Assembly (NCBI GenBank): GCA_965223005.1
Contig: CBDCVK010000010.1
Location: 1,120,001 to 1,184,000 of the forward strand
From: Terriglobia bacterium
GTDB taxonomy: Bacteria; Acidobacteriota; Terriglobia; JAJPHL01; JAPKYU01
Direction: 5' to 3'
Length of the DNA: 64,000 nt
The number at the start of each line of letters is the position of its first letter. Within the stretch, counting starts at the first letter, position 1. The position numbers and the translations under genes were made by a program. This document shows positions 11,090-55,408 of the stretch, piece by piece. The notes beneath the pieces are model-generated. The model had not been told where the DNA came from, did not search any database, and worked only from the letters and a program-made list of their open reading frames with translations.

Positions 11090-11947
11090 CTACGCCGCCA
11101 CGCGTCGCTCGAAGGCGGCCGGACTGATCTGGCCGAGCGTCGAGTGGCGCCGCCGCTGGTTATAGAACACTTCGATGTAGTCGAATAACTCCATCTTGGC
11201 CTCGCCGTTGCTGTCGAAGTGCTCGCGGAGTTCGCTCTTGACCGTCGAGAAGAAGCTTTCCATCACGGCATTGTCGTAGCAATTGCCCCGGCGGCTCATG
11301 CTACAGATGATACCGTGTGTGTCGAGCACGTCTTGGTAGTCCTCGCTCGCATAGGTGCCGCCCTGGTCGGAATGGTGCAGCAGACCGGCGTCGGGGCAGC
11401 GGCGCTTCAGCGCCATCTGGAGCGCCTTGATGGTCAGATGGCGGTCGTTGACGGCGCTCACGGCCCATCCCACGATGAACCGGGAGAACAGATCCAAGAT
11501 CGCCGCAAGGTAGAGCTTCCCGCTGCCGCCGATGACGAACTCCGTCGTGTCGCCGACCCACCGTTGATTCGGCGCGGCCGCCTCAAAGTGTCGGTCCAGG
11601 AGATTGGCCGCCACCGGTTGATCGTGATCACTCATCGTGGTGAGCTTGTACCGCTTGCGCCGCCGCGCCTTCAGCCCGTCTTTCTGCATCAGGCGCACGA
11701 CCCGTTTGCGGCTGACGTGCTCCTCCTGCTCAAGGAGATCCTCGTGAACGCGCGGGCTGCCGTAGCGCTGCTTGCTCGCCTCAAACGACGCCCGCACCAG
11801 CACGGTCAGCCGGCGATCCTCGCGTGCATGCGTTGATTCTGGACGCGCGCGCCAGGCGTAAAAGCCACTCCGCGTGACGTCGAGCCAGCGGCAGAGCTTC
11901 GTGAGCGGGTAGGTGGCCTTCTCCGCCTGGATCCACGCGAACTTCAC
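11090..11947 (-). CDS. IS3 transposase OrfB (DDE/rve domain)
   Basis: YGSPR, WVGDTT, HHSDQG, DNAVMESFF, YNQRRRHSTLG. Confidence 0.93.
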   Translation of the reverse strand: MKFAWIQAEKATYPLTKLCRWLDVTRSGFYAWRARPESTHAREDRRLTVLVRASFEASKQRYGSPRVHEDLLEQEEHVSRKRVVRLMQKDGLKARRRKRYKLTTMSDHDQPVAANLLDRHFEAAAPNQRWVGDTTEFVIGGSGKLYLAAILDLFSRFIVGWAVSAVNDRHLTIKALQMALKRRCPDAGLLHHSDQGGTYASEDYQDVLDTHGIICSMSRRGNCYDNAVMESFFSTVKSELREHFDSNGEAKMELFDYIEVFYNQRRRHSTLGQISPAAFERRVAA

Positions 11948-36443: not shown

Positions 36444-37748
36444 ATGAAAAGCAAATTGGCGAAAGGCAAATTGGCAATCCATGGCGGCAAGCCTACCGTC
36501 CCAGAAGCGCTGAAGAAAAGATGGCCCCATATCACCCAGGAGGACAAGGACGCTGTTCTGGGTGTCCTGGAACGCAACGTCTTCACCGGCGAGGAGCATG
36601 GCCCTGAGACGGCGGCTCTGGAGCGGGAATGGGCCGAGTTCACCGGAAGTAAACATGCCATGGCTTTCAATACCGGCACGGCATCTATCCATACGGCGTT
36701 GTTCGCCGCTGGCGTACGCCCAGGCGATGAGGTCATCACCACCGCCTTCTCTTTCGGCGGAACATTCCAGCCCATTCTCCAGCAACATGCCATCCCCATC
36801 TTTGTGGATATCGACCCCCGCACCTACAACATCGACGCGAGCCAGATAGAGAGCAAGATTACCGACAAGACTAAGGTGCTACTGCCGGTCCACATGCACG
36901 GGCTCCCCGCGGATATGGACGAAATCCTGGCGCTGGCCAAGAAACACAACCTCATCGTGGTCGAGGACGCCTGCCAGGCTCACGGGGCTACCTACAAAGG
37001 GCGGATGGCCGGGACTATTGGCGATATTGGCTGCTTCAGCCTCAACGCAAGTAAGAACCTCCCCGCAGGTGAGGGTGGACTGTTCACTACACAGAAAGAG
37101 GAATTCGTCCAGCGGGCAAAGTTGCTCCGCACGTTTGGCGAGATAGTGGGGCGGGAAAAGGAAAAATTTCGTCCCTACTACTGCCACAGCATCGGTTGGA
37201 ACTACCGCTGCCAGGAGTTGCCGGCCGCCCTAACTCGCAGCCAGTTGAAGCGGTTGCCACACTATAACGCCATAGGCCAGCGCAACGCGCAGTATCTGGA
37301 CAAAGAACTGAGCAAGATCAAGGGGCTGATCCCGCCTCACGTCCCCGCCGACCGCACCACCGTGTACCACAAGTATCGGATCCGCTTCGACCCCAAGGTT
37401 CTGGGTCTGAGCATCCCGGCTACCGAATTTCGAGACAAGCTGGTGGACGCCCTGCGTGCGGAGGGAATGGCTGCCAACCTCTGGCACTACAAGCCGCTGC
37501 CCAGCTATCCCATCTTCCAAAAACTCGATGTGGGACTGGGTGACGGTTATCCTTGGAGCTCTCCTCTCTACGGAAGGAAGATCAGCTACAAGCCGGAAGA
37601 ATATCCACGGGCAACCGAACTCTTGAACATGTCTCTTGTCGTGAATGATGAGCGGAATCCCATCTTTGTCCAAGATATGGAGTTAATGGAGCACTACGTA
37701 GCTGCTTTCCGCAAAGTCTTTGAGAACTTGGATGAGGTGGTGGCCTGA
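36444..37748 (+). CDS. DegT/DnrJ/EryC1/StrS PLP aminotransferase
   Basis: PVHMHG, EDACQAHGA, SLNASKNLPAGEGG, GWNYR. Confidence 0.92.
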   Translation: MKSKLAKGKLAIHGGKPTVPEALKKRWPHITQEDKDAVLGVLERNVFTGEEHGPETAALEREWAEFTGSKHAMAFNTGTASIHTALFAAGVRPGDEVITTAFSFGGTFQPILQQHAIPIFVDIDPRTYNIDASQIESKITDKTKVLLPVHMHGLPADMDEILALAKKHNLIVVEDACQAHGATYKGRMAGTIGDIGCFSLNASKNLPAGEGGLFTTQKEEFVQRAKLLRTFGEIVGREKEKFRPYYCHSIGWNYRCQELPAALTRSQLKRLPHYNAIGQRNAQYLDKELSKIKGLIPPHVPADRTTVYHKYRIRFDPKVLGLSIPATEFRDKLVDALRAEGMAANLWHYKPLPSYPIFQKLDVGLGDGYPWSSPLYGRKISYKPEEYPRATELLNMSLVVNDERNPIFVQDMELMEHYVAAFRKVFENLDEVVA

Positions 37749-37822
37749 CTTCCCGATAAGGCCGTGTTCCTGTCTATCGTAAGCTCGGGCGCGAGGCGCG
37801 CTTCGGGTGGTAATATGGAGAC

Positions 37823-38209
37823 ATGGGACTCAAATTCGCTTCGACGCTGGGTATGCTGCTGCTGGTGCTGGCTGCCGGAGCTGCGGCCCACGAAAAACAT
37901 GCAAAGAAAAACGCCGCGGCGGAGCAGACGATCACCGGCGAGGTCATTGATACCTCCTGCTACCTCCAGCACGGCAACAGTACCGGCGAACCGCATCGCG
38001 CCTGCGCATTGGAATGCGCTAGGCAGGGCGTACCGTTGGGGCTGCTGACCTCTTCCGGAACCATCTACCTCCCGATTGCCATGACCCACAAGGATGCCTA
38101 TAACAAGCCTCTGCTGCCTTACGCTGGCAGGAAGGTCCGCGTCAAAGGACGCGTGCTCATCAAAGGAGGTTTTCGAGGCATCGTGATCAAGTCGGTCGAG
38201 TCGCTCTAA
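37823..38209 (+). CDS. Small exported hypothetical protein (conserved Cys/His, OB-fold-like)
   Basis: Signal peptide; GEVIDTSCY...HRACALEC...G.P.GL. Confidence 0.65.
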   Translation: MGLKFASTLGMLLLVLAAGAAAHEKHAKKNAAAEQTITGEVIDTSCYLQHGNSTGEPHRACALECARQGVPLGLLTSSGTIYLPIAMTHKDAYNKPLLPYAGRKVRVKGRVLIKGGFRGIVIKSVESL

Positions 38210-38291
38210 TAGGCTTCTGAAAGACTCCAAGCTTCGCCAGGCCATCCGGACTTTGCCAAGCCATCCAGACTTTGCAGGATAAGATGGGCCC

Positions 38292-39281
38292 GTGCGGAAA
38301 GTCCTGCTGGACGTGGACACAGGGGTTGACGACGCGCTGGCGTTAATCTTCGCGCTACGCTCACCGGAGTTGGACGTGCGAGCGATCACCACAGTGGCCG
38401 GCAACATCGAGGTGGACAGCGTGCTGCGCAACACGCTGCTGCTGCTGGACGTGCTCCAGGCCCCGCCCATCCCCGTGGCGCGAGGTGCCGATCAGCCGCT
38501 GGTTCGACCCCTGGTCACCGCCGAGGACGTGCATGGCGCCGACGGGTTGGGCAACGCCACTACGGTCTATCCGCCGCCGCGCCGCGGCCCGTGTAACCAA
38601 GACGCGACCGAATTGATCCTCTCCACCATCGCTGCCGAACGCGAGCAGCTCACCCTGGTGGCCACCGGGCCGCTTACCAACCTGGCACGCGCCCTGGAGG
38701 CCGACCCGGCCACCTTTCGCTTGCTGGGAAGACTAGTGGTGATGGGTGGGGCCTTCCGCACCGCAGGCAACACTGGTCCGGCAGCCGAGTTCAACTTCTT
38801 CTGCGATCCGGAAGCGGCCCGAGCGGTGTTTCAAGTGGGGCTGCAAGTAACCCTCGTTCCCCTGGACGTCAGCGAACGCGCCGTGTTGCCGCGCGCCACT
38901 CTGCGCGCGCTCAGTCAGCAACGCGACTCTTCGGTATTCCAGTTTGTCCGCGAATTCACCGTGCTGTGGTTTGACTACCATCGGGAAGTCGCCGGCATGG
39001 AGGGTGGCTACCTGCACGACCCTCTGGCGGTGGCTGCTGCCGCTCTCCCTGACCTGCTCCGTACCGTCCACACTCGCGTCAGCGTGGAGACGGCTGGCGA
39101 GTTCACCGCGGGCATGACGGTGGCCGACTTGCGCGGGCACAAACCGGGGCCGGAGGTGCTGGCGCGCTTCGGCGGCGAGGCGGCTCAGGGCGGACCCTAC
39201 GGGCCTCCGAATGCCCACGTAGCTATGGACGCCGACGTTCCGCGCTTCCTCGATTTATTCTACGAGCGCGTCTGCCGCTAA
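38292..39281 (+). CDS. Inosine/uridine-preferring nucleoside hydrolase
   Basis: DVDTGVDDA, GPLTNLA, MGG, AEFNFFCDPEAA, HDP. Confidence 0.94.
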   Translation: MRKVLLDVDTGVDDALALIFALRSPELDVRAITTVAGNIEVDSVLRNTLLLLDVLQAPPIPVARGADQPLVRPLVTAEDVHGADGLGNATTVYPPPRRGPCNQDATELILSTIAAEREQLTLVATGPLTNLARALEADPATFRLLGRLVVMGGAFRTAGNTGPAAEFNFFCDPEAARAVFQVGLQVTLVPLDVSERAVLPRATLRALSQQRDSSVFQFVREFTVLWFDYHREVAGMEGGYLHDPLAVAAAALPDLLRTVHTRVSVETAGEFTAGMTVADLRGHKPGPEVLARFGGEAAQGGPYGPPNAHVAMDADVPRFLDLFYERVCR

Positions 39282-45283: not shown

Positions 45284-46341
45284 ATGCTGGTCAAGACGCG
45301 CAGCGCCGCGGTCTTCGGCATTGACGCCTACCTGGTGGACGTGGAAGTGGACCTGTCCAGCCGGGGCATGCACGATTTCCTGGTGGTAGGCCTGCCGGAC
45401 GCAGCGGTCAAGGAAAGCCACCATCGCGTCCGCGGCGCGCTGAAAAACTGCGGTTACTACTTCGGCCAGAGCGTCACCGTCAACCTTGCCCCAGCCGACA
45501 AGAGGAAGGAAGGCTCCGGCTTTGACCTTCCCATGGCCATGGGAATTCTCGGGGCTTTAGAGGTGGTTTCCTCTGAGCGGCTGGCCGAGTTCCTGTTCCT
45601 CGGCGAGCTGTCGCTGGACGGCTCGCTGCGCCCTATCCGCGGCACGCTGCCGGTGGCCGTGCTGGCCCGGGCATCCGGCATCCGGCACCTCGTGGTTCCA
45701 TCTGCCAACGCGCGAGAGGCGGCGGTCGTCGAGGGGGTCTGCGTCTTTGCGGTGAACTCGCTGGGGGAGGCGCTGGCCCTGGTGAACGATGCGCCCGGTT
45801 TCACCGCAACCCAGGTGGACCGCCAGCAGGCCTTGGAGCAAAGCAGCGTTTATAACGTGGACTTCAGCGAAGTGCGCGGGCAGAAGGCTACCAAACGCGC
45901 TCTGGAAGTGGCCGCCGCCGGCGCCCACAACATCCTGATGATTGGGCCGCCGGGTTCGGGCAAGACGATGCTGGCCCGGCGCCTGCCCACCGTCCTGCCC
46001 GGCCTGAGCTTTGACGAGGCCATCCAGACAACCAAGATTCACAGCGTGGCTGGAGTGCTGGACCCGGCGCAGGGCCTGCTCTGCACTCGACCCTTCCGCT
46101 CACCGCACCATACCATCTCGGACGCCGGCCTGGTAGGCGGCGGGACCATTCCTCATCCTGGCGAGGTGAGCCTGGCGCACAACGGGGTGCTGTTTCTGGA
46201 CGAGTTGCCGGAATTCCGGCGCAATGTGCTGGAGGTGATGCGCCAGCCTTTGGAGGATGGCGCGGTGACGATCGCCCGGGCCACCATGACCGTGGCCTTC
46301 CCCTCCTCCTTCATGCTCGCCGCCGCCATGAACCCTTGCCC
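45284..46341 (+). pseudogene. comM: comM/yifB Mg-chelatase-like AAA+ ATPase, 5' part (split by the integrated element)
   Basis: [38 protein letters not shown], ending AAMNPCP at the insertion site. Confidence 0.93.
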
Positions 46342-47831
46342 GTAGGGCTTATTTCATTGCGACACCTATCTGTAAGAATCGAAAGGCCTGCCACGCGGTA
46401 GTTGTGTACGTGGATTCCGGGGACAATCGCTTGCAGAAGCCTCCGTTTGTGGTCCCTCGATAAAAACTCCCACTCGTGGAAGGGTGCAAACACCTGCGCC
46501 AGTTCCGCCGCAGAAAAGGACATTTCTGGGGACTCCCGCATCAGCATTTGCCGGTACAGCGCCTGGTCCCGCTCGACGGCGGCCAGGCGGCGATCCCGCT
46601 CTTCCTGCGTGATCACTCCATCGAAGTAGGTCCCGAGAACCCGCTCCCGCTTTCCGGCGAGTGCCCGCAGTTCAGACTGCAACCGCACCACCTGATTATT
46701 CTCGCCATCACGACCATGTCGGTACTGTTCCATCAAGTCTTCGAGGAAATCACCGTCAGTCAACCGTTGCGCAAAGAGCGAATCCAGTGACGCTTCCAGA
46801 CGCTCGCGACGCATATAGCGGCTTTCGCACTTCCCGCTTAGCCGACGGTTCTTGCAGATGTAGTAATCACGCCCTCGATGGTGTGTGTAAATGATTTCAT
46901 TGCAGGCGGAGCAGTTAAGAAACCCGTTGTAGACAAAGCGATGCTCATAATCCAGACGCGACCGCCAATGCCGCTCCCGCTTCAGGTCAAGCAATCTCTG
47001 CAGATGAGAAAATTCGTCTTCGCTCAGAATACCGTCCATTACCTTGACGCGAATAACTTCTTCCGGCGTCCGGGCCACCTTGGGCCGATCCGCCTGCCGA
47101 CCGTCTTGTTTGGTACGTTTGGCTGCGGGCGAAGGGTCCCGCCGCTGAGAGTACACTCGCCAACCCGCGTAGATCGGGTTGCGCAGGATCACCCGTAGGT
47201 TAAAGGGGTCAATGCCAAGCTTCTCCCCCACAGCTCGGTAACTGGTTTCTCCCCCAAGAAAAAGGCGCACCGCTTCTCGCACCTTCTCGGCTTCCGCTTT
47301 GTAGTACCAGCCACGATGCTCGTCATACGCGACCCCGAACGGGAGAGTTATCCAAGATTGCGGGTGCTTGCCAGCGCGCCGGTTCTCTTCCTTTGCCGCC
47401 CACACGCGCTCCAAAATCTCGGTGCGCTCTAAGCCGGCGATGGCTGCCCGGATCGGTCCCATAAGCCGACCGGCCTTTGAAGACATATCAATCAGTCCGT
47501 CCGGGAGGTATAGCACCGTGCGCGTGTCAACGAAGGCTTGCAGCAGAGCGTAATCTGTAAAATTTTCTGGCCGCATCAGGCGCGAGAATTCCTTCGCCAC
47601 AACACCATGAATCTGCGGTGACTCCATCAGCCGAAGTAGTTCTTTCATCTCCGGCGCCATCAGAACCGCTGCTCCCGAAACGTCGGCCATCTCAATAGTG
47701 CGAACAATCTCAAGGCCGTACTGCTGGGCTGTGCGCCTGTTCGCCGCACGTTGGGCCGGGACGCCGGCGCGACCCTCGGCCGCTTGCCCCTCAGTTGACA
47801 CGCGGATGAGTTCGATCACCTTTTTGTTCAT
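46311..47831 (-). CDS. Large serine recombinase (integrase); 3' end crosses the left junction
   Basis: IRVSTEGQ catalytic Ser motif, [23 protein letters not shown], zinc ribbon CSAC...YYIC...C, coiled coil. Confidence 0.93.
46340..46366. other. Left hybrid attachment site (core CC 46340-46341 plus element arm)
   Basis: CC-GTAGGGC-TTATTTCATTGCGACACC; arm is an imperfect inverted repeat of the right-end arm. Confidence 0.85.
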
Positions 47832-48017
47832 CGTCCAACCCGCAGAGTTTTCTTGCCAGCCGCAATACTGTTGATTGGTCCCCGCTTTCGAGCGCTGCCC
47901 GAAGGCTGGCGAGAGTTTCGCGCCTTTTGCGCGAGATTTCAAGCGCCGCCTCCAGGATTCCTTTGGAATTGGTGGGCTTGATCCGGTTTCGTGGACACGT
48001 TCCGAAAGGCGGATACG

Positions 48018-48335
48018 ATGTCCAGAATGGGATCAACGAAGGCAGGGAGACGGGCGCGACGACAGTTCAGTGAGGAGTTCCGGATCGGAGCCGTTCGGCT
48101 GGTCTTGGATGCGGGCAAGACGGTCGGCGCCGTCGCGCGCGAGTTGGATCTGACGCCATCGGCCCTGGCGCAGTGGGTGAAGCAGGCACGTGCCGATCGG
48201 ACGAAGGGCAAGACGGGGCTGACGACCGAGGAGCGCGCCGAGCTGGCGCGCCTACGCAAAGACAATCGCGAGCTGCGGATGGAGCGCGACGTCCTAAAAA
48301 AAGCCACGGCCTTCTTCGCGAAGGACCACCTGTGA
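48018..48335 (+). CDS. IS3 transposase OrfA
   Basis: Same protein as copy 1 OrfA. Confidence 0.9.
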   Translation: MSRMGSTKAGRRARRQFSEEFRIGAVRLVLDAGKTVGAVARELDLTPSALAQWVKQARADRTKGKTGLTTEERAELARLRKDNRELRMERDVLKKATAFFAKDHL

Positions 48336-49189
48336 AGTTCGCGTGGATCCAGGCGGAGAAGGCCACCTACCCGCTCACGAAGCTCTGCCGCTGGCTCGAC
48401 GTCACGCGGAGTGGCTTTTACGCCTGGCGCGCGCGTCCAGAATCAACGCATGCACGCGAGGATCGCCGGCTGGCCGTGCTGGTGCGGGCGTCGTTTGAGG
48501 CGAGCAAGCAGCGCTACGGCAGCCCGCGCGTTCACGAGGATCTCCTTGAGCAGGAGGAGCACGTCAGCCGCAAACGGGTCGTGCGCCTGATGCAGAAAGA
48601 CGGGCTGAAGGCGCGGCGGCGCAAGCGGTACAAGCTCACCACGATGAGTGATCACGATCAACCGGTGGCGGCCAATCTCCTGGACCGACACTTTGAGGCG
48701 GCCGCGCCGAATCAACGGTGGGTCGGCGACACGACGGAGTTCGTCATCGGCGGCAGCGGGAAGCTCTACCTTGCGGCGATCTTGGATCTGTTCTCCCGGT
48801 TCATCGTGGGATGGGCCGTGAGCGCCGTCAACGACCGCCATCTGACCATCAAGGCGCTCCAGATGGCGCTGAAGCGCCGCTGCCCCGACGCCGGTCTGCT
48901 GCACCATTCCGACCAGGGCGGCACCTATGCGAGCGAGGACTACCAAGACGTGCTCGACACACACGGTATCATCTGTAGCATGAGCCGCCGGGGCAATTGC
49001 TACGACAATGCCGTGATGGAAAGCTTCTTCTCGACGGTCAAGAGCGAACTCCGCGAGCACTTCGACAGCAACGGCGAGGCCAAGATGGAGTTATTCGACT
49101 ACATCGAAGTGTTCTATAACCAGCGGCGGCGCCACTCGACGCTCGGCCAGATCAGTCCGGCCGCCTTCGAGCGACGCGTGGCGGCGTAG
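48332..49189 (+). CDS. IS3 transposase OrfB
   Basis: DDE motifs as in copy 1. Confidence 0.93.
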   Translation: MKFAWIQAEKATYPLTKLCRWLDVTRSGFYAWRARPESTHAREDRRLAVLVRASFEASKQRYGSPRVHEDLLEQEEHVSRKRVVRLMQKDGLKARRRKRYKLTTMSDHDQPVAANLLDRHFEAAAPNQRWVGDTTEFVIGGSGKLYLAAILDLFSRFIVGWAVSAVNDRHLTIKALQMALKRRCPDAGLLHHSDQGGTYASEDYQDVLDTHGIICSMSRRGNCYDNAVMESFFSTVKSELREHFDSNGEAKMELFDYIEVFYNQRRRHSTLGQISPAAFERRVAA

Positions 49190-49407
49190 GGCATGGACGC
49201 TGCCGTCCCTGTGGACGCGGAAAACGCGTCCACGAGTGACTTGGAAAACCGCACAGAACGCGGTTTCCCACAGCGTCCACACCCATTATCGCGTTCATGA
49301 AAGGAAGAAAAAAGAGAGAGACTCAACCAACGTAACTAAACCGTCCACTGAATCGGATCAGGCTCATGGGCGGCGTTCCGGGCTGTGGGTCGCGGCTCAT
49401 TCGTGGT

Positions 49408-49893
49408 TCAGAACGATGTACTCCGCAACTTTCGCAGCATGGCTTTGCTACCGGCATCTACGCCACACCGGCGGGCATGTTGCTCCTGCCGTTTCTTCCG
49501 CTGGACCCGTGCCGCCTCGATGCCCGGCAGGAGGCAATCGCAGCGCCGCACGGTGTTTTCATTAACCTGAATCCAGCCGCTCGTGTCGGCACAGTTCTCA
49601 CAAAATCTACCGGTGTCCTCCGGGTCGTAACTTTTCTGGCGCTGTGTCGTTTGTGCGGCCTTGCTGATGGCGGCCACACTGGGGAAGTAGTCGTAGTTCC
49701 TCAAGCACCACGCACAAGCCTCGGACAATAGTTCTGGCGACAAATGGGCCAGGCCCTCAGCGTAGACGGCAGCGTGCGGTTCAGTAATCTCCCGGTTCCA
49801 GGAGGCGCTGAACTGGAACAGCCAGTGTTTGAGTGCCGCCAGGAATTGCTCGTTCGAGCGCGGTAGCAGTTCGGATGATTTTTTGCTGTTCAT
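49408..49893 (-). CDS. Phage-type helicase loader/inhibitor-like protein with C-terminal Zn finger
   Basis: Y..L......AC...L....FPSVAAI pattern seen in phage replication accessory proteins; CENC...GW...RCDC; follows the rep gene. Confidence 0.55.
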   Translation of the reverse strand: MNSKKSSELLPRSNEQFLAALKHWLFQFSASWNREITEPHAAVYAEGLAHLSPELLSEACAWCLRNYDYFPSVAAISKAAQTTQRQKSYDPEDTGRFCENCADTSGWIQVNENTVRRCDCLLPGIEAARVQRKKRQEQHARRCGVDAGSKAMLRKLRSTSF

Positions 49894-50692
49894 AAGACAG
49901 GGTTCCCTTTAGTGGTTTTCCGAAGCGGTCTAGTGGTCCGCCAGCGTATTTCGCTAAATTTCTGAGCCAGAAGTGTGGCGGCTCGCTGTGATTTGCTTCG
50001 CTTGCGAATCGGTGTTGGAGGCACACCAAAATCTGCTCCGTGGTCCAGGAAGGGTTTTCGCGGAGGAACAGGGCGAGGTTTCGTCCTTCTGTCGGTCCCC
50101 AGGGGGCCGTCGGCACCCCAGGGTTGCGTTCGCGCCAACCTTGCTGGATTGCATTTCTGACTTCAGGGTGCCGGGTGTCAACTTCGCCCGTGGCCGGTGC
50201 TTTTGGACGTGCCACAAGGCCCTTCTCCTGGGTTCCCTTAACATGTGTACCCTTAAGCGGAAGGTGGTTCCGCTGGTTTCTGCTGTCATTTTCCGCTGGC
50301 TCTGCGCTTGTTTTCCGCTGGTGGCGGAACGTGGTTCCGCTGGCACCGGAATCTAATTCCGCTGGCGGGAGCCATTCGGACTTGTCAAGCAAATGGTAGA
50401 CGTTATTCAAAAACCCGCCGCTTTCGGCACGTCGGCGCTCCACCGCTATCAGGCGGAGGCGCTCCAAAAGGTGGAGGTATTTACGAACGCTACGGGCACT
50501 GATGCCATGTTGTTCGGCGATTCTTTGTTCGGAAGGAAAGCAGGACTCATTCCGGTCAACGTGCCGACATAGGCTCAAGTAGATAGCTGTGCCAATGGGT
50601 CCCAGCACCTTCGCGTAGCCATTCAGGTACAAGTCGTCTACCACGAAGTATCCCTTTCGCCTGCGGTCCCTGACCTGGAATCCTGCGTTCAC
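49781..50692 (-). CDS. Phage-like replication initiator (N-terminal winged HTH)
   Basis: IYLSLCRHVD...CFPSEQRIAEQHGISARSVRKYLHLLERLRLI...NVYHL; internal iteron array. Confidence 0.75.
   Translation of the reverse strand: MNAGFQVRDRRRKGYFVVDDLYLNGYAKVLGPIGTAIYLSLCRHVDRNESCFPSEQRIAEQHGISARSVRKYLHLLERLRLIAVERRRAESGGFLNNVYHLLDKSEWLPPAELDSGASGTTFRHQRKTSAEPAENDSRNQRNHLPLKGTHVKGTQEKGLVARPKAPATGEVDTRHPEVRNAIQQGWRERNPGVPTAPWGPTEGRNLALFLRENPSWTTEQILVCLQHRFASEANHSEPPHFWLRNLAKYAGGPLDRFGKPLKGTLSYEQQKIIRTATALERAIPGGTQTLAVPVQRLLEPGDY
50268..50365. repeat. Iteron-like array, TTCCGCTGG x5 (putative origin)
   Basis: Copies start at 50268, 50291, 50313, 50335, 50357 (spacing 23, 22, 22, 22). Confidence 0.8.
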
Positions 50693-51422
50693 CTCGTCGC
50701 CTCCAGGGTGACGCGCTTGCTAGCCCTCGCTGGGCGACGCACGTCATTTCCCATCCCGCCCGGTGGTTCTGCTGGATGGACTCTTTCCGCGAGCCAGGTA
50801 CACACAACTTCCGAATCCAGCCGAACCAGACGCCCCACCTTTACGAAAGTGATTTCTCGCAAAGAAACCGGGGGGCCTTTTCGTGGAAAAGCTCTATTTG
50901 GCAGTGTTCTGTGGGCGCACTGCCTTATCCTGGCATTTCTCGGCTTGCGGGGTTCCTATGTGGTTGGCGATCAGGTCGGCCCTGAACTCCATGGTTCTTC
51001 GTGAGCCGCCGGGAGCGACTAAACCGTCTAGCCTATTTGCAGCAGTGTGCCGTGACCCCCTACAGTCACCATCGCGCACGGGCGCCGAAACGGACTATTT
51101 TCTTTCCATCTCCGCGTGCACTTCCAACGTCTGTCCTGCCGCAATCGAAATCTTGCGCTCCCAATCCTTGAAACCCTGCTTTCGCAGCTTGGCGTTGTAC
51201 TTTCCCGGCGCCAACGTTTGGGACTGTGGACTGACTCCAGCGTAAGCTCCGTCGATTTCGACTTCAGCCCACGCAGGATCGGAAGTTATCTTCACGGCAC
51301 CTTTCTGCTCTTCGCTCGGTGGAACGTCTAGTTCGGCCTTTACACCTTTCTTAAACAGCCACTTCCGGTCCTTTTCATCAGCATAAATAGGCTTGCCTGT
51401 ATGGAATGTGAGGGCATCTAGG

Positions 51423-53082
51423 CCCGGATTTCCTTTATGAACTATCGGCGGCAACCTTCTGAATGACTCCAACGTCAGTATTGATGCGGGTTCCAGCATC
51501 AACATTGCCTTCCGGAGGTGTACACCGAATGGGTGAGAGCCAAAAACAGGCGTTTCAACTGTCATTCAACCGGTTTCTGCGGGTCACATTTCAGGGATCG
51601 CGAATCACTTCCGACGGCGGTCTGATTCTGGTGCGCGAGTTGGACGAACGTTTGGGGTTCGGCGAACTTATCGAACAGCACTTGATCGACTCTCGGGGGA
51701 AGAACACTCGGTTGCCCCTCGCTGACTTGCTGCGGCAGTCCATCTACAGCCGCTTGGCAGGATACGAAGACGTCAACGACGCCGAGCGGCTTTCCCAAGA
51801 TCCGACGTTCCGGCTGATCGGTTCGGAGAAGATCTGGGAACGTGGCGCAGCCCTGACTTCCCGGTTACAGTCGTTCGAGACAGAACTGCTGACGCAAGAC
51901 GAGAACCTTGCTGGTTTGGCAGCGATCAACCGGGATTTGATCGCCAGGGCGGAAGCTATGGATGCGCCGCGCCGGGTGGTGCTGGACATGGACAGCACCG
52001 AGATCCCGGTCTACGGCGAACAGGAGCAGAGCGCCTACAACGGGCATTTCGAGTCGAGTTGCTATCACCCGTTGTTGCTGTTCAGTCGCGAGGGTGACTG
52101 TCTGGCGGCCAAGCTGCGACCCGGCAACGTGCACAGCGCCGAGGATTGGGAAGAACTTCTCCTGCCAGAGATCGAACGGCAGCAGAAGCTGGGCAAGGAA
52201 GTGGTGTTTCGCGCCGACGCCGCCTTCGCCAAGCCGGAGATCTACGACGCACTGGAGGAGCGGGACGTGAAGTATGCGATTCGCATCCCGGCCAACGACA
52301 GTCTGGAGAGGGACATCGCGGAGTTGTTGACGCGGCCAGTGGGGCGACCGAGCCACAAGCCGGTGGTCTGGTACAAGAGCTTTCTCTACCAGGCAGCCAG
52401 TTGGAAAAAGGCGCGGCGGGTGGTGGCGAAGGTGGAGTTCCACTTTGGCGAACTGTTCCCTCGCGTGGGGTTCATCGTCACCAATCTGGAGACCGACAGC
52501 CGGGCGGTGGTCCGGTTCTACAACAAGCGGGGCACCGCAGAGCAATGGATCAAGGAAGGCAAGCAGGCGGTAAAGATGACCCGGCTGAGTTGCCATCGGT
52601 TTCGGTCGAACGAGGTGCGCCTATGGCTGAGCCTGATCGCCTACAACTTGGGAAACCTGTGGCGGCGGCTGGTGCTACCGAAGAGGATCAACAACTGGTC
52701 GCTGACGAGTTTGCAGCAGCGGCTGGTGAAAACGGGAGGACGGCTGGTGAAACATGCGCGATATTACTGGCTTTTGCTGGCCGAAGGGCACTTGAGCCGG
52801 AGGCTGTTCAGCAGCATGCTGCGAACGATCTCGGCACTGCCGCTGCCAGACGGCTAGCGACCCAGGAGAGAGGGTAATTTTAGGTGCTCAGAAGTGGTCG
52901 GGCCGGACAAGTGTCAGCGGCGAGGCAGGCTGGGCAGGCGAAACCCGCACAGCGACTCCGAAGAACAGCCAAAATGTGCCGCACTACGACCTCAAAGAGG
53001 CCCGGGCGATTTGCGATTGACACGACAGGGTAAGAGGCATAGGTTTTCGGGTGAAGGGGAAGCTCAAAATGGAAATTCCGGG
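51423..53082 (+). mobile_element. IS1380-family insertion sequence
   Basis: Left end CCCGGATTTCCTTTATGAAC; right end GCTCAAAATGGAAATTCCGGG; single DDE transposase. Confidence 0.88.
51529..52857 (+). CDS. IS1380-family transposase
   Basis: TSDGG, GYEDVND, LDMDST, YHPL, RPGN, RADAAF, YNKRGTAEQWIKEGK. Confidence 0.93.
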   Translation: MGESQKQAFQLSFNRFLRVTFQGSRITSDGGLILVRELDERLGFGELIEQHLIDSRGKNTRLPLADLLRQSIYSRLAGYEDVNDAERLSQDPTFRLIGSEKIWERGAALTSRLQSFETELLTQDENLAGLAAINRDLIARAEAMDAPRRVVLDMDSTEIPVYGEQEQSAYNGHFESSCYHPLLLFSREGDCLAAKLRPGNVHSAEDWEELLLPEIERQQKLGKEVVFRADAAFAKPEIYDALEERDVKYAIRIPANDSLERDIAELLTRPVGRPSHKPVVWYKSFLYQAASWKKARRVVAKVEFHFGELFPRVGFIVTNLETDSRAVVRFYNKRGTAEQWIKEGKQAVKMTRLSCHRFRSNEVRLWLSLIAYNLGNLWRRLVLPKRINNWSLTSLQQRLVKTGGRLVKHARYYWLLLAEGHLSRRLFSSMLRTISALPLPDG

Positions 53083-53142
53083 TAAGAGATTAGACCCTGT
53101 TTCACTTGACGGACTAAGTCCGCAAGCCAGAAGGGGTGAACC

Positions 53143-53952
53143 ATGAGTTTGTCGAAGATCGTTGCTCTGGGCACCGGGATTTACCATCACTACGGCCTGG
53201 AAGCTGCACTGAAAGGGATTCATCGGGCCGGGTGCGGCTATGTGGAGATGGCAGCCAACCCACCACATGCAGAACACGTTTCCCTCGACATGGACGACGC
53301 CGCAGTCGAGGCCCTGCTGGCCAAGCTTCAGCAGTACCGTCTCAAGGTCGTGGCTCTAAACGGCAACATCGGCATGATGAGGAAAGGCGACGTCGAGCGA
53401 TCCAAGAAACTCATCAGCCTTGCTCCAAAGCTTGGCGCCGGGGTTGTGGTGAATACACTCGGCGGAGCCGGCCTGGAAGAGGACTTACCCCCGTTTCTGG
53501 CCAACGTCGGGGAGGTGGCGGACCATGCCCGAAAAAACGGTGTCACGATTGGCCTGGAAGTGCACGGCAAGCACACTGCCAACGGCAAACTCGCTTTGGC
53601 CACGGTTCGCGCGGTCAATGACCCAAACGTTAAGATCAACTACGATACCGCCAACTGCATCTATTTCGGCGATACCTTGCCCTACGAAGACCTGCCGGTT
53701 GCTGTCCCCGAAATGGCGCACATCCATCTGAAGGATAAGATCGGCGGCAAGGGAGTATGGAACTTTCCGCCCATAGGAATGGGTGAAATTGACTTCGAAA
53801 GGGTGCTCAACATCTTGGACGACGGAGGCTATCGAGGTGCGCTGAGCGTGGAGATCGAGTTCGACGACCGGGGCTGGCCTCCTGTTGCCGAGGTGGACGA
53901 GGCTGCAAGCTCCGCCTATCGCACCCTCATGCGATTGCTGGAGACGCACTAG
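53143..53952 (+). CDS. Sugar phosphate isomerase/epimerase (passenger of the IS1380 unit)
   Basis: IGLEVH, INYDTAN, HIHLKD, GEIDF, SVEIE. Confidence 0.88.
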   Translation: MSLSKIVALGTGIYHHYGLEAALKGIHRAGCGYVEMAANPPHAEHVSLDMDDAAVEALLAKLQQYRLKVVALNGNIGMMRKGDVERSKKLISLAPKLGAGVVVNTLGGAGLEEDLPPFLANVGEVADHARKNGVTIGLEVHGKHTANGKLALATVRAVNDPNVKINYDTANCIYFGDTLPYEDLPVAVPEMAHIHLKDKIGGKGVWNFPPIGMGEIDFERVLNILDDGGYRGALSVEIEFDDRGWPPVAEVDEAASSAYRTLMRLLETH

Positions 53953-54906
53953 CAGGAGCTGAGGGTTTCTGCCCGCGGCCGTGTCAGGCGCTGAGGTTCT
54001 TGAACGACTCCTTCATCTTGCGAAACTCAGCTAGGATACCCTTGAATTGCTTCTTATGCGCTTTCATCTGCAAGCCACGCTCCCGATTTTGGTCGTCGGT
54101 CCATTCAACGAGAATGAGGTGCTGACGCGATTTGTGGAGGATTCCGACTAACGCAATTGGTGCTAGCAAGACACCAACCGCAACCCATTTGGCGACCCTC
54201 CTGGTCGTGGCCTGTCCATACGTCAGCCTTGTTACTCTGTCGACCGGAATTGTCACCGGCGGAATCACATCCTTCTTGAAGCCAAAGGTGACTTCCTTTT
54301 CGGTGACGTAGAGTCTGTTGTCCCAAGATTTGCGGACTTTCTTTATATCCTCATCCGCAAAACCGGCACCTCCAAGGTACTTGATGCCCTTCGGGAAATT
54401 TTCTCCATAGGCCGAAGGGAGTATCAAAGATACACAAAAAAGTGTCACGATCAGCTTCTTCGTACCTTCACGACGCGCACTGAGTTGAATCATCACTTGC
54501 CTCCTTTCGCGCGACCCGTCGGCGAGCCAAAGTAGTACCGTGTGCGGACGAACGGTCCAAACCCTCTTCCTTTGCCACCTGTGCCCCTCAAGGAGAACTG
54601 AGAACGCGGATGGTAAGTAGAGAAATCAATCCCCCTTGCCGATAACCTACGCTCCCCTCAGGAGCTAGTCAAGAACGGGCCAGTGTGGCCTTTATTAGAG
54701 GTCGGGGAGGGTGATCCTAGGCGACCTCACTCCGGGACTCGTGCTTCCTCTTTACTTAATGGTTTAATTCAAGCGGTAGGAATACGTTAGCAGTGGTGGT
54801 TACAAGGCCAGCCGTAGTCGAATGGTTGGCGATGCAACCACTTCAGGTCGCTCTCAAACGCCAACCTGCCTACGCCGCAAAGTCCAGCCGCAGGTATAAG
54901 TTGCGG

Positions 54907-54933
54907 GGCGCCGTAATGAGATAACCCGCAGCC
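54907..54933. other. Right hybrid attachment site (element arm plus core CC 54932-54933)
   Basis: GGCGCCGTAATGAGATAA-CCCGCAG-CC, then comM resumes. Confidence 0.85.
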
Positions 54934-55408
54934 CTGTGGTTTCTTCAACGATTCTACCCGCGAGTGCCACTGCACTCCGGGCGTGATCCAGCGTTACGTT
55001 TCAAAGATTTCCGGCCCGCTGCTGGACCGCATTGACATCCACGTTGATGTCCCGGCAGTGAAGTACCGCGAGCTGCGCTCCGAGCAGAGCGCGGAAGATT
55101 CGGCGGCGATTCGCGCCCGGGTGGAACGCGCCCGCGCCACGCAACTGGAGCGCTTCCGCAACGACGGCATCTACGCCAATGCCCAGATGAGCACCCGGCT
55201 CATGCGCCGCCATTGCCCGATTGACGAGGCTTCCGAGAAGCTGCTGGAGACCGCCATTAGCCGCATGGGGCTTTCCGCCCGCGCCCACGACCGCATCCTG
55301 AAGGTGGCCCGCACCATTGCCGACCTGGAAGGCTCTTCCGCGATCCAGTCCCGCCACATCGGTGAAGCCGTTCAGTACCGCTCGCTCGACCGCACCTACT
55401 GGGCCTAG
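54934..55408 (+). pseudogene. comM: comM/yifB 3' part
   Basis: [13 protein letters not shown]...[15 protein letters not shown]...SAR...KVARTIADL...EAVQYR. Confidence 0.93.

Follow-up and report, generated by a model that had tools for sequence, protein, structure and literature searches.

A serine integrase gene that crosses its own attachment site: comM-integrating elements of Acidobacteriota swap the C-terminus of their integrase on recombination

What becomes of an integrase when the site at which it recombines lies inside its own gene? The question is raised by an element of ~8.6 kb that splits comM at a 2-bp CC crossover in a Terriglobia bacterium of the Acidobacteriota (assembly GCA_965223005.1, contig CBDCVK010000010.1). 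We analysed a window of 64,000 nucleotides, positions 1,120,001 to 1,184,000 of this contig; positions are counted within the window unless a locus is named. The element encodes a large serine recombinase (LSR) whose open reading frame (ORF) runs through the crossover, and integration or excision swaps the last residues of the enzyme, 9 in the integrated and 20 in the excised form. We put the chance at roughly 55% that this swap is a recombination-coupled isoform switch affecting the activity or the directionality of the integrase.

We examined the split gene and its crossover, which are laid out as follows.

45284..46341, plus strand: 5' fragment of comM, 352 codons followed by CC, the first two bases of a Pro codon (translation, empty-site comparison).
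46340..46341, no strand: attL crossover dinucleotide CC (GG in the integrase sense), the sole register restoring the comM frame.
54932..54933, no strand: attR crossover dinucleotide CC (empty-site comparison and contig joint).
54932..55408, plus strand: 3' fragment of comM, from the Pro codon of ..NPCPCGFF.. to the stop (translation, intact comM of relatives).

The 5' fragment reads into the element and meets a premature TAG at 46343-46345. It shows 91% identity to the intact comM of a genome of the same genus (G003), where the empty site (locus L003) leaves comM uninterrupted as ATG AAC CCC TGC CCC TGC GGT, and eight more relatives share this reading across the site. Joining the two halves of the window in frame is possible in one register only, with a 2-bp overlap, CC, that forms positions 1-2 of a Pro codon. 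A metagenome contig (run X2) contains a joint from 46339 to 54932, skipping 8592 bases, at which exactly two letters fit both sides; the shorter side has 28 letters at 90% likeness, so that the joint lends the junction weak support. The contig may stem from a strain that the element never entered, and it speaks, weakly, for the junction and not for excision. Further long joints around this position (46335 to 55013, 46339 to 55010, 46341 to 55301) resemble comM of other organisms and were left unused. No joint of the excised circle (attP) appears among the joints listed for the contigs of four (X1, X2, X3, X9) of the 23 runs; this search, which covered contigs and not raw reads, with rare variants dropped and 14 joints unlisted, is silent on excision.

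The integrase gene lies just inside the first junction, and the piece that completes it lies at the second.

46311..47831, minus strand: large serine recombinase gene, integrated isoform, 506 amino acids from the ATG at 47831 (translation, Pfam).
54870..54932, minus strand: stored tail exon, 20 codons and a TAG, completing the integrase ORF only in the excised circle.

The ORF extends over 46311-47942 on the minus strand, and its true start is probably the ATG at 47831, to judge by the N-termini of homologues. The protein is an LSR by its domains, Resolvase (PF00239), Recombinase (PF07508) and Zn_ribbon_recom (PF13408) in Pfam, which provide an N-terminal resolvase catalytic domain, a recombinase domain and a zinc-ribbon domain with an inserted coiled coil; AlphaFold2 models of two natural episomal isoforms of the family display long antiparallel helices at residues 377-435. 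In the integrated state the enzyme ends in nine residues, GKGSWRRRA, and a TGA (46311-46340), all of it antisense comM; the conserved Phe-Met pair of comM, read in antisense, supplies the stop. Rebuilding the excised form in a script gave an ORF with a 20-residue tail that stops at 54870-54872. The crossover thus lies inside coding sequence and the C-terminus depends on the state of the element, in the window and in its family alike.

Recombination sites of LSRs have imperfect inverted arms and a 2-bp crossover that sets orientation, and the attP rebuilt from the window has both.

46342..46364, minus strand: P arm of attP, within the codons for ..CRNEISPT (arm symmetry).
54909..54931, minus strand: P' arm of attP, covering ~8 codons at the start of the tail exon (symmetric to the P arm, no codon periodicity).

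Its 13-bp arms match at 11 of 13 positions, each 7 bp from the centre. Counting 30 nucleotides per arm, 18 positions are symmetric, a value reached by 0 of 10000 shuffles. Across 38 rebuilt attP sites, whose assembly is described below, arm symmetry is high from 2 to ~23 nucleotides from the centre and at background beyond. Both arms are coding: the P arm specifies conserved ..NE.. residues and the P' arm the first ~8 residues of the tail. A sequence-only reading of the window had proposed this serine-integrase geometry, an element in comM with a frame-restoring crossover at CC, an integrase ORF that crosses attP to give two C-termini, and an excised-form tail of 20 residues with the stop given above. 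Its coordinates and strings are all present in the sequence, and the shuffle test, the comM of G003 and the eight other relatives, the translations and the script rebuild bear these points out. Where it had suggested looking in sequence data for an attP circle and an intact comM, the outcome was divided, with one empty-site contig of uncertain origin found and no circle joint listed. These data do not show comM being switched on or off, as that reading had it.

The position of the crossover can be checked against an element that sits in comM in the opposite orientation.

2800-2900 and 11440-11570 of locus L033: relative of opposite orientation, a natural case of the dinucleotide setting insertion polarity.

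The attP half-sites and the tail exon of L033 are the same as those of the window type, and its central dinucleotide in the integrase sense is CC, the complement of the GG of the window. A flip of orientation that depends on the dinucleotide is textbook behaviour for serine integrases. The flip of L033 together with its complementary dinucleotide confirms the mapped crossover. Furthermore, the integrated tail of L033 is read from sense comM in another frame and is unrelated in sequence to that of the window, which suggests that losing the episomal tail matters and that the sequence replacing it does not. Catalysis of attP x attB recombination by the LSR is putative, with indirect support from the exact empty site of a relative and that of one metagenome contig.

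We examined how far this arrangement extends. Homologues at E <=1e-20 numbered 955 among the candidates scored, the best 120 of which were listed, and among 401 genomes sampled from its class 11 carry the integrase. At 72 of 80 related genome loci the LSR abuts a comM fragment. The arrangement of the window, with int overlapping by its 3' end the terminus of the comM 5' fragment, which lies on the opposite strand, occurs at 52/80 loci; at 8/80 the orientation is opposite and int runs into the comM 3' fragment; and 12/80 use a second comM site, which lies ~30 codons upstream at about residue 320-327 of the 5' fragment and is occupied in both orientations (L046, L057, L063, L064, L075, L080, L089, L091 and L059, L062, L076, L078). 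comM was not seen in the stretch examined at 8/80 loci, and it lies next to int in 0 of 13 viral contigs. Among 214 homologues, non-redundant over the last 32 residues, the tail is comM-antisense in 128, window-like episomal in 46 and otherwise in 40, these classes being pattern-based and approximate.

Episomal forms were also met directly. The natural episomal isoform encoded on viral contig L098, where a tail-fibre-like gene adjoins int, served as the query of a protein search that led to a clade on contigs of ~40-45 kb whose members nearly all end ..R[IL][FWY][IL]PLNL. Altogether 50 natural sequences carry an episomal tail, mostly on phage-like contigs, beside the 38 rebuilt elements with such a tail. 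Palindromic sites symmetric at 14-18 of 23 positions were found in 8 of 9 natural contigs checked (six of them viral), with centres 58-64 nucleotides short of where the int stop ends; the remaining contig, L104, is weaker (12/23, 83 nucleotides). These sites show that the episomal form with attP inside the ORF exists in nature. No close relative turned up among cultured phages in a tblastn search of 50,697 phage records, where the best match was the phiFC1 integrase at 23% identity. The window's element belongs to a large Acidobacteriota family of soil-bacterial elements and ~40-kb phages that integrate in comM, and the C-terminal swap proposed for it, when tested in homologues, proves to be conserved across that family.

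Three observations from the survey stand on their own. In the natural attP-like sites of viral contigs L095, L096 and L099 (centres 11527, 11554 and 11437) the central dinucleotides in the integrase sense are not CC/GG but CT, GC and TT, which may reflect shifted crossovers, other targets or a symmetry search that is one base off. The phage-clade integrases P0128, P0129, P0130, P0170 and P0173 have the core-proximal tail segment (..E[ST]R..A[GA]S..A[ED]..) in two tandem copies before the final motif; to judge by sequence, their att region seems to have undergone duplication. A more distant LSR, L150 (G011:C41:34700-35628), interrupts comM a few bases earlier, after ATGAATCCCTG, and reads through the junction into antisense comM with the same comM-derived stop, its contig ending within the gene. 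Judged from L150, the read-through design may be wider than this family.

Is the stored tail kept as a peptide, or only as a part of the DNA site? Of 45 genomes with window-type loci, 43 yielded the comM 3' fragment, and we took the adjoining 500 bases for 40 places, three stretches having reached the contig end. The episomal ORF was rebuilt for 37 places, three loci with both ends present and the window itself, and all 41 elements gave a junction; L026, L051 and L060, in which the far piece is intact comM, were dropped, and 38 remain. The motif [ILV][YFW][LI]P[LI] stands 9-12 codons past the crossover in 35/38 rebuilt tails. Codons 12-16 of the tail exon hold this position in the window and read L-Y-L-R-L. 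L024 has a near-variant of the motif, and the tails of L022 and L025 are shorter, with arm and motif seemingly fused.

Compared in pairs, the motif codons show differences of 0.40/0.10/0.63 at positions 1/2/3, and the attP-arm codons a flat 0.40/0.41/0.36. The motif Pro is encoded by CCG 15, CCT 7, CCA 6 and CCC 4 times, many synonymous codons are used for the motif Leu and Ile, and the motif is kept between LSRs that are only ~50% identical. Because arm symmetry ends ~23 nucleotides from the centre, the motif lies outside the DNA site, and the codon periodicity together with the free use of synonymous codons indicates that the distal tail is kept as a peptide in the integrase frame. The tail is thus made of two parts, the P' arm of attP near the core, under DNA constraint, and a peptide motif farther out. 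Judging from its codons, the distal tail is under coding selection even in currently integrated elements; such a constraint points to an episomal isoform that is made and matters, and to elements that cycle.

These results bear on an account of the locus in which attP came by chance to lie at the 3' end of int and neither tail is functional. LSR genes commonly stand at the edge of their elements, the stop of the SPbeta integrase gene sprA is only 24 nucleotides from the annotated attachment site, and the more distant LSR of G011 also enters antisense comM, all of which incidental read-through would explain. Incidental read-through is nevertheless very improbable in view of the periodicity across codon positions and the choice of synonymous codons in the distal motif, the conservation of that motif between LSRs ~50% identical, and a confident predicted docking of the tail, given next.

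We modelled two natural episomal isoforms from different sub-lineages with AlphaFold2, at a mean predicted local distance difference test (pLDDT) of 82.9 and 89.4. Both models have a linker of pLDDT <50 followed by a strand formed by the motif, at residues 513-517 in the first (block pLDDT 71) and 512-520 in the second (block pLDDT 87). When the tail of the second protein (494-523) was docked against its body (1-493) the score was 0.69, and the best of 3 controls scored 0.10; the docking mark is reached by 58 of 80 solved complexes and by 2 of 110 mismatched pairs. The docking runs share at least 71% of their contacts, with a partner pLDDT of at least 44. Confident contacts map to residues 473-476 and 480-489 of the last beta-hairpin, to residues 347-373 in the helices that lead up to the coiled coil, and to residues 440-441 in the loop by which the coiled coil returns. 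The motif strand is predicted, then, to dock on the final hairpin of the zinc-ribbon domain (DBD2), beside the hinges of the coiled coil. The best Foldseek matches of the models are SPbeta integrase structures, with Bxb1 and phiC31 integrases also among the top hits. A phmmer search of a natural episomal isoform against solved structures returned nothing at E <=0.001, and a profile search yielded nothing beyond the A118 integrase C-terminal domain, the TP901-1 catalytic domain and the like; with no SPbeta match by sequence, the link to SPbeta rests on Foldseek.

The computations give the geometry, the two isoforms, the conservation, the coding selection on the distal tail and the predicted docking site, and an isoform switch would join them in the following way. 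With the attP core ~20 codons before the int stop, recombination would rewrite the C-terminus of the very enzyme that carries it out. From the episomal gene a full-length isoform would be made, in which a disordered linker, corresponding to the P' arm, precedes the conserved hydrophobic strand, and the strand would dock on the last DBD2 beta-hairpin by the segments that flank the coiled coil. In the integrated gene the strand would give way to ~9 arbitrary residues from antisense comM or, in relatives of opposite orientation, to residues read from comM in another frame. The integrated isoform lacks the strand, yet the elements evidently return to the episome, and hence the strand would be a module needed only in the episomal, integration-competent state. 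Its loss would alter activity or the control of directionality, for example the set of the coiled-coil hinge or the access of a directionality factor, and would not act mainly through half-life.

A stronger form of the switch, possible but tentative, is a self-rewriting toggle: integration would remove and excision restore the hinge-docking strand, each product enzyme being biased or licensed for the reverse or the next step. Such a toggle would partly replace or gate the directionality factor in a large share of comM-targeting serine integrases.

Several points weigh against the isoform switch. The distal motif is absent from 3/38 rebuilt tails, and the window has Arg where 32/37 relatives have Pro. 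A terminal Ala-Ala closes 10/88 tails, about ten-fold above the ~1 expected from the Ala content (0.099), in lineages that are related and not independent. The structural statements are all predictions and the activity of the integrated isoform is putative; the docking used an alignment of our own making, and its pass possibly reflects memory of solved SPbeta-type integrases. By analogy, too, the polarity would be opposite, since the SPbeta element serves excision and the strand described here is present in the integrating form.

We also considered that the tail might be needed in every reaction, in which case a crippled integrated isoform would stabilise integration and favour slow domestication, with no directionality logic. 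Such an attenuation or lock resembles Mx8, where attP inside int leads to a new 3' end that alters and does not abolish the enzyme, according to the published account (PMC6070905). It would agree with the predominance of integrated members (128/214 proteins, 72/80 genome loci), with the two insertions that the window's element has gathered, and with frameshifts or interruptions in integrated int genes (e.g. L072, L078, L079, L083, L088, L093). The stored tail exon, on the other hand, keeps its frame and motif in 35/38 integrated elements, a pattern to be expected only of elements that regularly go back to the episome, and episomal forms of the same clades exist on ~40-kb phage-like contigs. 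We therefore hold attenuation to be distinctly unlikely.

A different function had been assigned to the tail by the sequence-only reading, which took the ..LDFAA end for an ssrA-like tag. The likeness stands: the transfer-messenger RNA (tmRNA) gene of the host (G000 contig C5:187544-187897) encodes the tag ANNQLAYAA. Conservation of a terminal Ala-Ala in the excised forms, which that reading led one to expect, fails, with such an end in 4/50 natural and 6/38 rebuilt tails. Ala-Ala is the commonest ending among the rebuilt tails, and there is a hint that such ends arise repeatedly across lineages; 35/50 natural episomal tails end NL. According to the degron hypothesis the tail, through its Ala-Ala or a hydrophobic C-terminus, would deliver the enzyme to ClpXP or another protease, leaving the episomal enzyme short-lived and the integrated one stable. 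This would fit the resemblance to the host tag, the excess of Ala-Ala ends over the ~1/88 expected, the hydrophobic ..IPLNL ends of the phage clade, and the att-dependent ssrA-like tags established for BPs-type repressors in the reports of that system (PMC9934374, PMC6109161). It is rather doubtful given that 78/88 tails lack a terminal Ala-Ala, that rebuilt tails run 2-23 residues past the motif, many with polar or charged ends, and that the part which is conserved lies inside the tail, where prediction has it buried as a docked strand, not exposed. Terminal hydrophobicity as a generic degron was set aside as the main explanation, many rebuilt tails ending in polar residues. As the tail sequences read, a degron may be an add-on in some lineages, including that of the window, and is not what the family conserves. 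Under the isoform switch, the terminal Ala-Ala of the window would be a lineage-specific extra, perhaps adding proteolytic control.

The remainder of the element consists of one further core gene of recognisable type and two insertions.

49781..50692, minus strand: replication-initiator-like protein, core (Pfam HTH_36; PHROG replication initiation families, best 1.9e-14).
47970..49366, plus strand: IS3-type insertion sequence, non-core, with the transposase ORF at 48173-49189 (Pfam rve, HTH_21).
51418..54030, plus strand: second insertion of 2613 bp, non-core, with a DDE_Tnp_1_4 transposase at 51463-52857 (Pfam).

Contigs of 4/4 runs join 47969 to 49367 without the IS3-type insertion, and contigs of 3/4 runs join 51417 to 54031 without the second, which also holds a xylose-isomerase-like TIM-barrel gene (53143-53952). 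With both insertions skipped in this way the core measures ~4.6 kb and contains the LSR, the replication-initiator-like gene and a few small ORFs without matches; phage structural genes are absent from the core. The window's element is thus a small integrative element whose core was later struck by two insertions. The IS3-type copy lies 138 nucleotides upstream of the int start codon and may separate int from its promoter. A minimal element of ~2.1 kb, L073 (8953-11614), carries only int and the stored tail exon between the comM halves.

One stretch of DNA doubles here as a protein-binding site, in both arms of attP, and as coding sequence. The directionality of LSRs is an active structural question, and LSRs are sought-after tools of genome engineering. 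If the episomal tail matters, integrases mined from prophages are annotated with the wrong C-terminus, here antisense comM. In integration assays these enzymes may fall short, and LSRs have no commoner target than comM in the survey available (PMC10083194). A natural pair of isoforms that differ only in a predicted hinge-side element would offer a ready test of reaction direction.

The literature searched, of which subscription journals and supplements are largely outside the coverage, holds no description of attP inside a serine-integrase ORF. The record of Streptomyces phage R4 annotates the integrase (37594-39006) and not attP; its sre gene may overlap attP, a point on which nothing here relies. 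The attP of SSV1 reportedly lies within int.

Four known systems come close to the element described here. comM homologues are the most enriched LSR target, and 12.4% of the integrases predicted to be site-specific hit them (Durrant et al. 2022, PMC10083194), and the window's element is one more case among the comM-targeting LSRs of that survey. The passages drawn on here make no mention of att sites inside the recombinase ORF or of alternative C-termini (PMC10083194).

The integrase of SPbeta, SprA, offers the closest structural likeness. Residues 530-545 (F532) of this enzyme are described as lying in a DBD2 pocket shielded by the pre-coiled-coil segment and as contacting the directionality factor, and its extreme C-terminal region as essential for excision and largely dispensable for integration (10.1101/2025.01.03.631226). 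SprA, a 'molecular toggle' (Abe et al., as the preprint describes it), has a short hydrophobic C-terminal element on DBD2 by the hinge, like the one predicted for the family enzymes, and its gene likewise points at the att site; the protein ends ..RFNFIFDL.. followed by seven residues. Whereas the SPbeta ORF stops before the crossover and gives the same protein in both states, here the element is encoded across attP and is lost on integration.

In BPs/Brujita-type actinobacteriophages, known for integration-dependent immunity, the attP core lies close to the repressor gene's 3' end, and the viral form of the repressor is longer than the prophage form, which is ended by host sequence (PMC9934374, PMC6109161). 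As far as these reports describe the system, it shares with the window an attP within a gene near its 3' end and a 3' remnant kept at the other end of the prophage. There, however, a repressor is split by a tyrosine integrase and carries a terminal ssrA-like Ala-Ala tag; here the serine integrase itself is split, with Ala-Ala at the end of 10/88 tails.

Mx8 IntP/IntX provides the precedent in which the recombinase gene is the one rewritten: the attachment site is in the int coding sequence, and integration produces a recombinant gene whose 3' end is new and whose enzyme is altered (PMC6070905). The window agrees with that account in having the attachment site within int and a C-terminus that changes on integration. 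Unlike Mx8, a tyrosine recombinase with other chemistry, arm sites and directionality control and with a tRNA-linked attB, the enzyme of the window is an LSR with a 2-bp crossover, and what its family swaps is a short strand whose predicted docking place is beside the hinges of the coiled coil. The arrangement described here carries the notion of an in-gene attP beyond tyrosine recombinases and repressors, to serine integrases.

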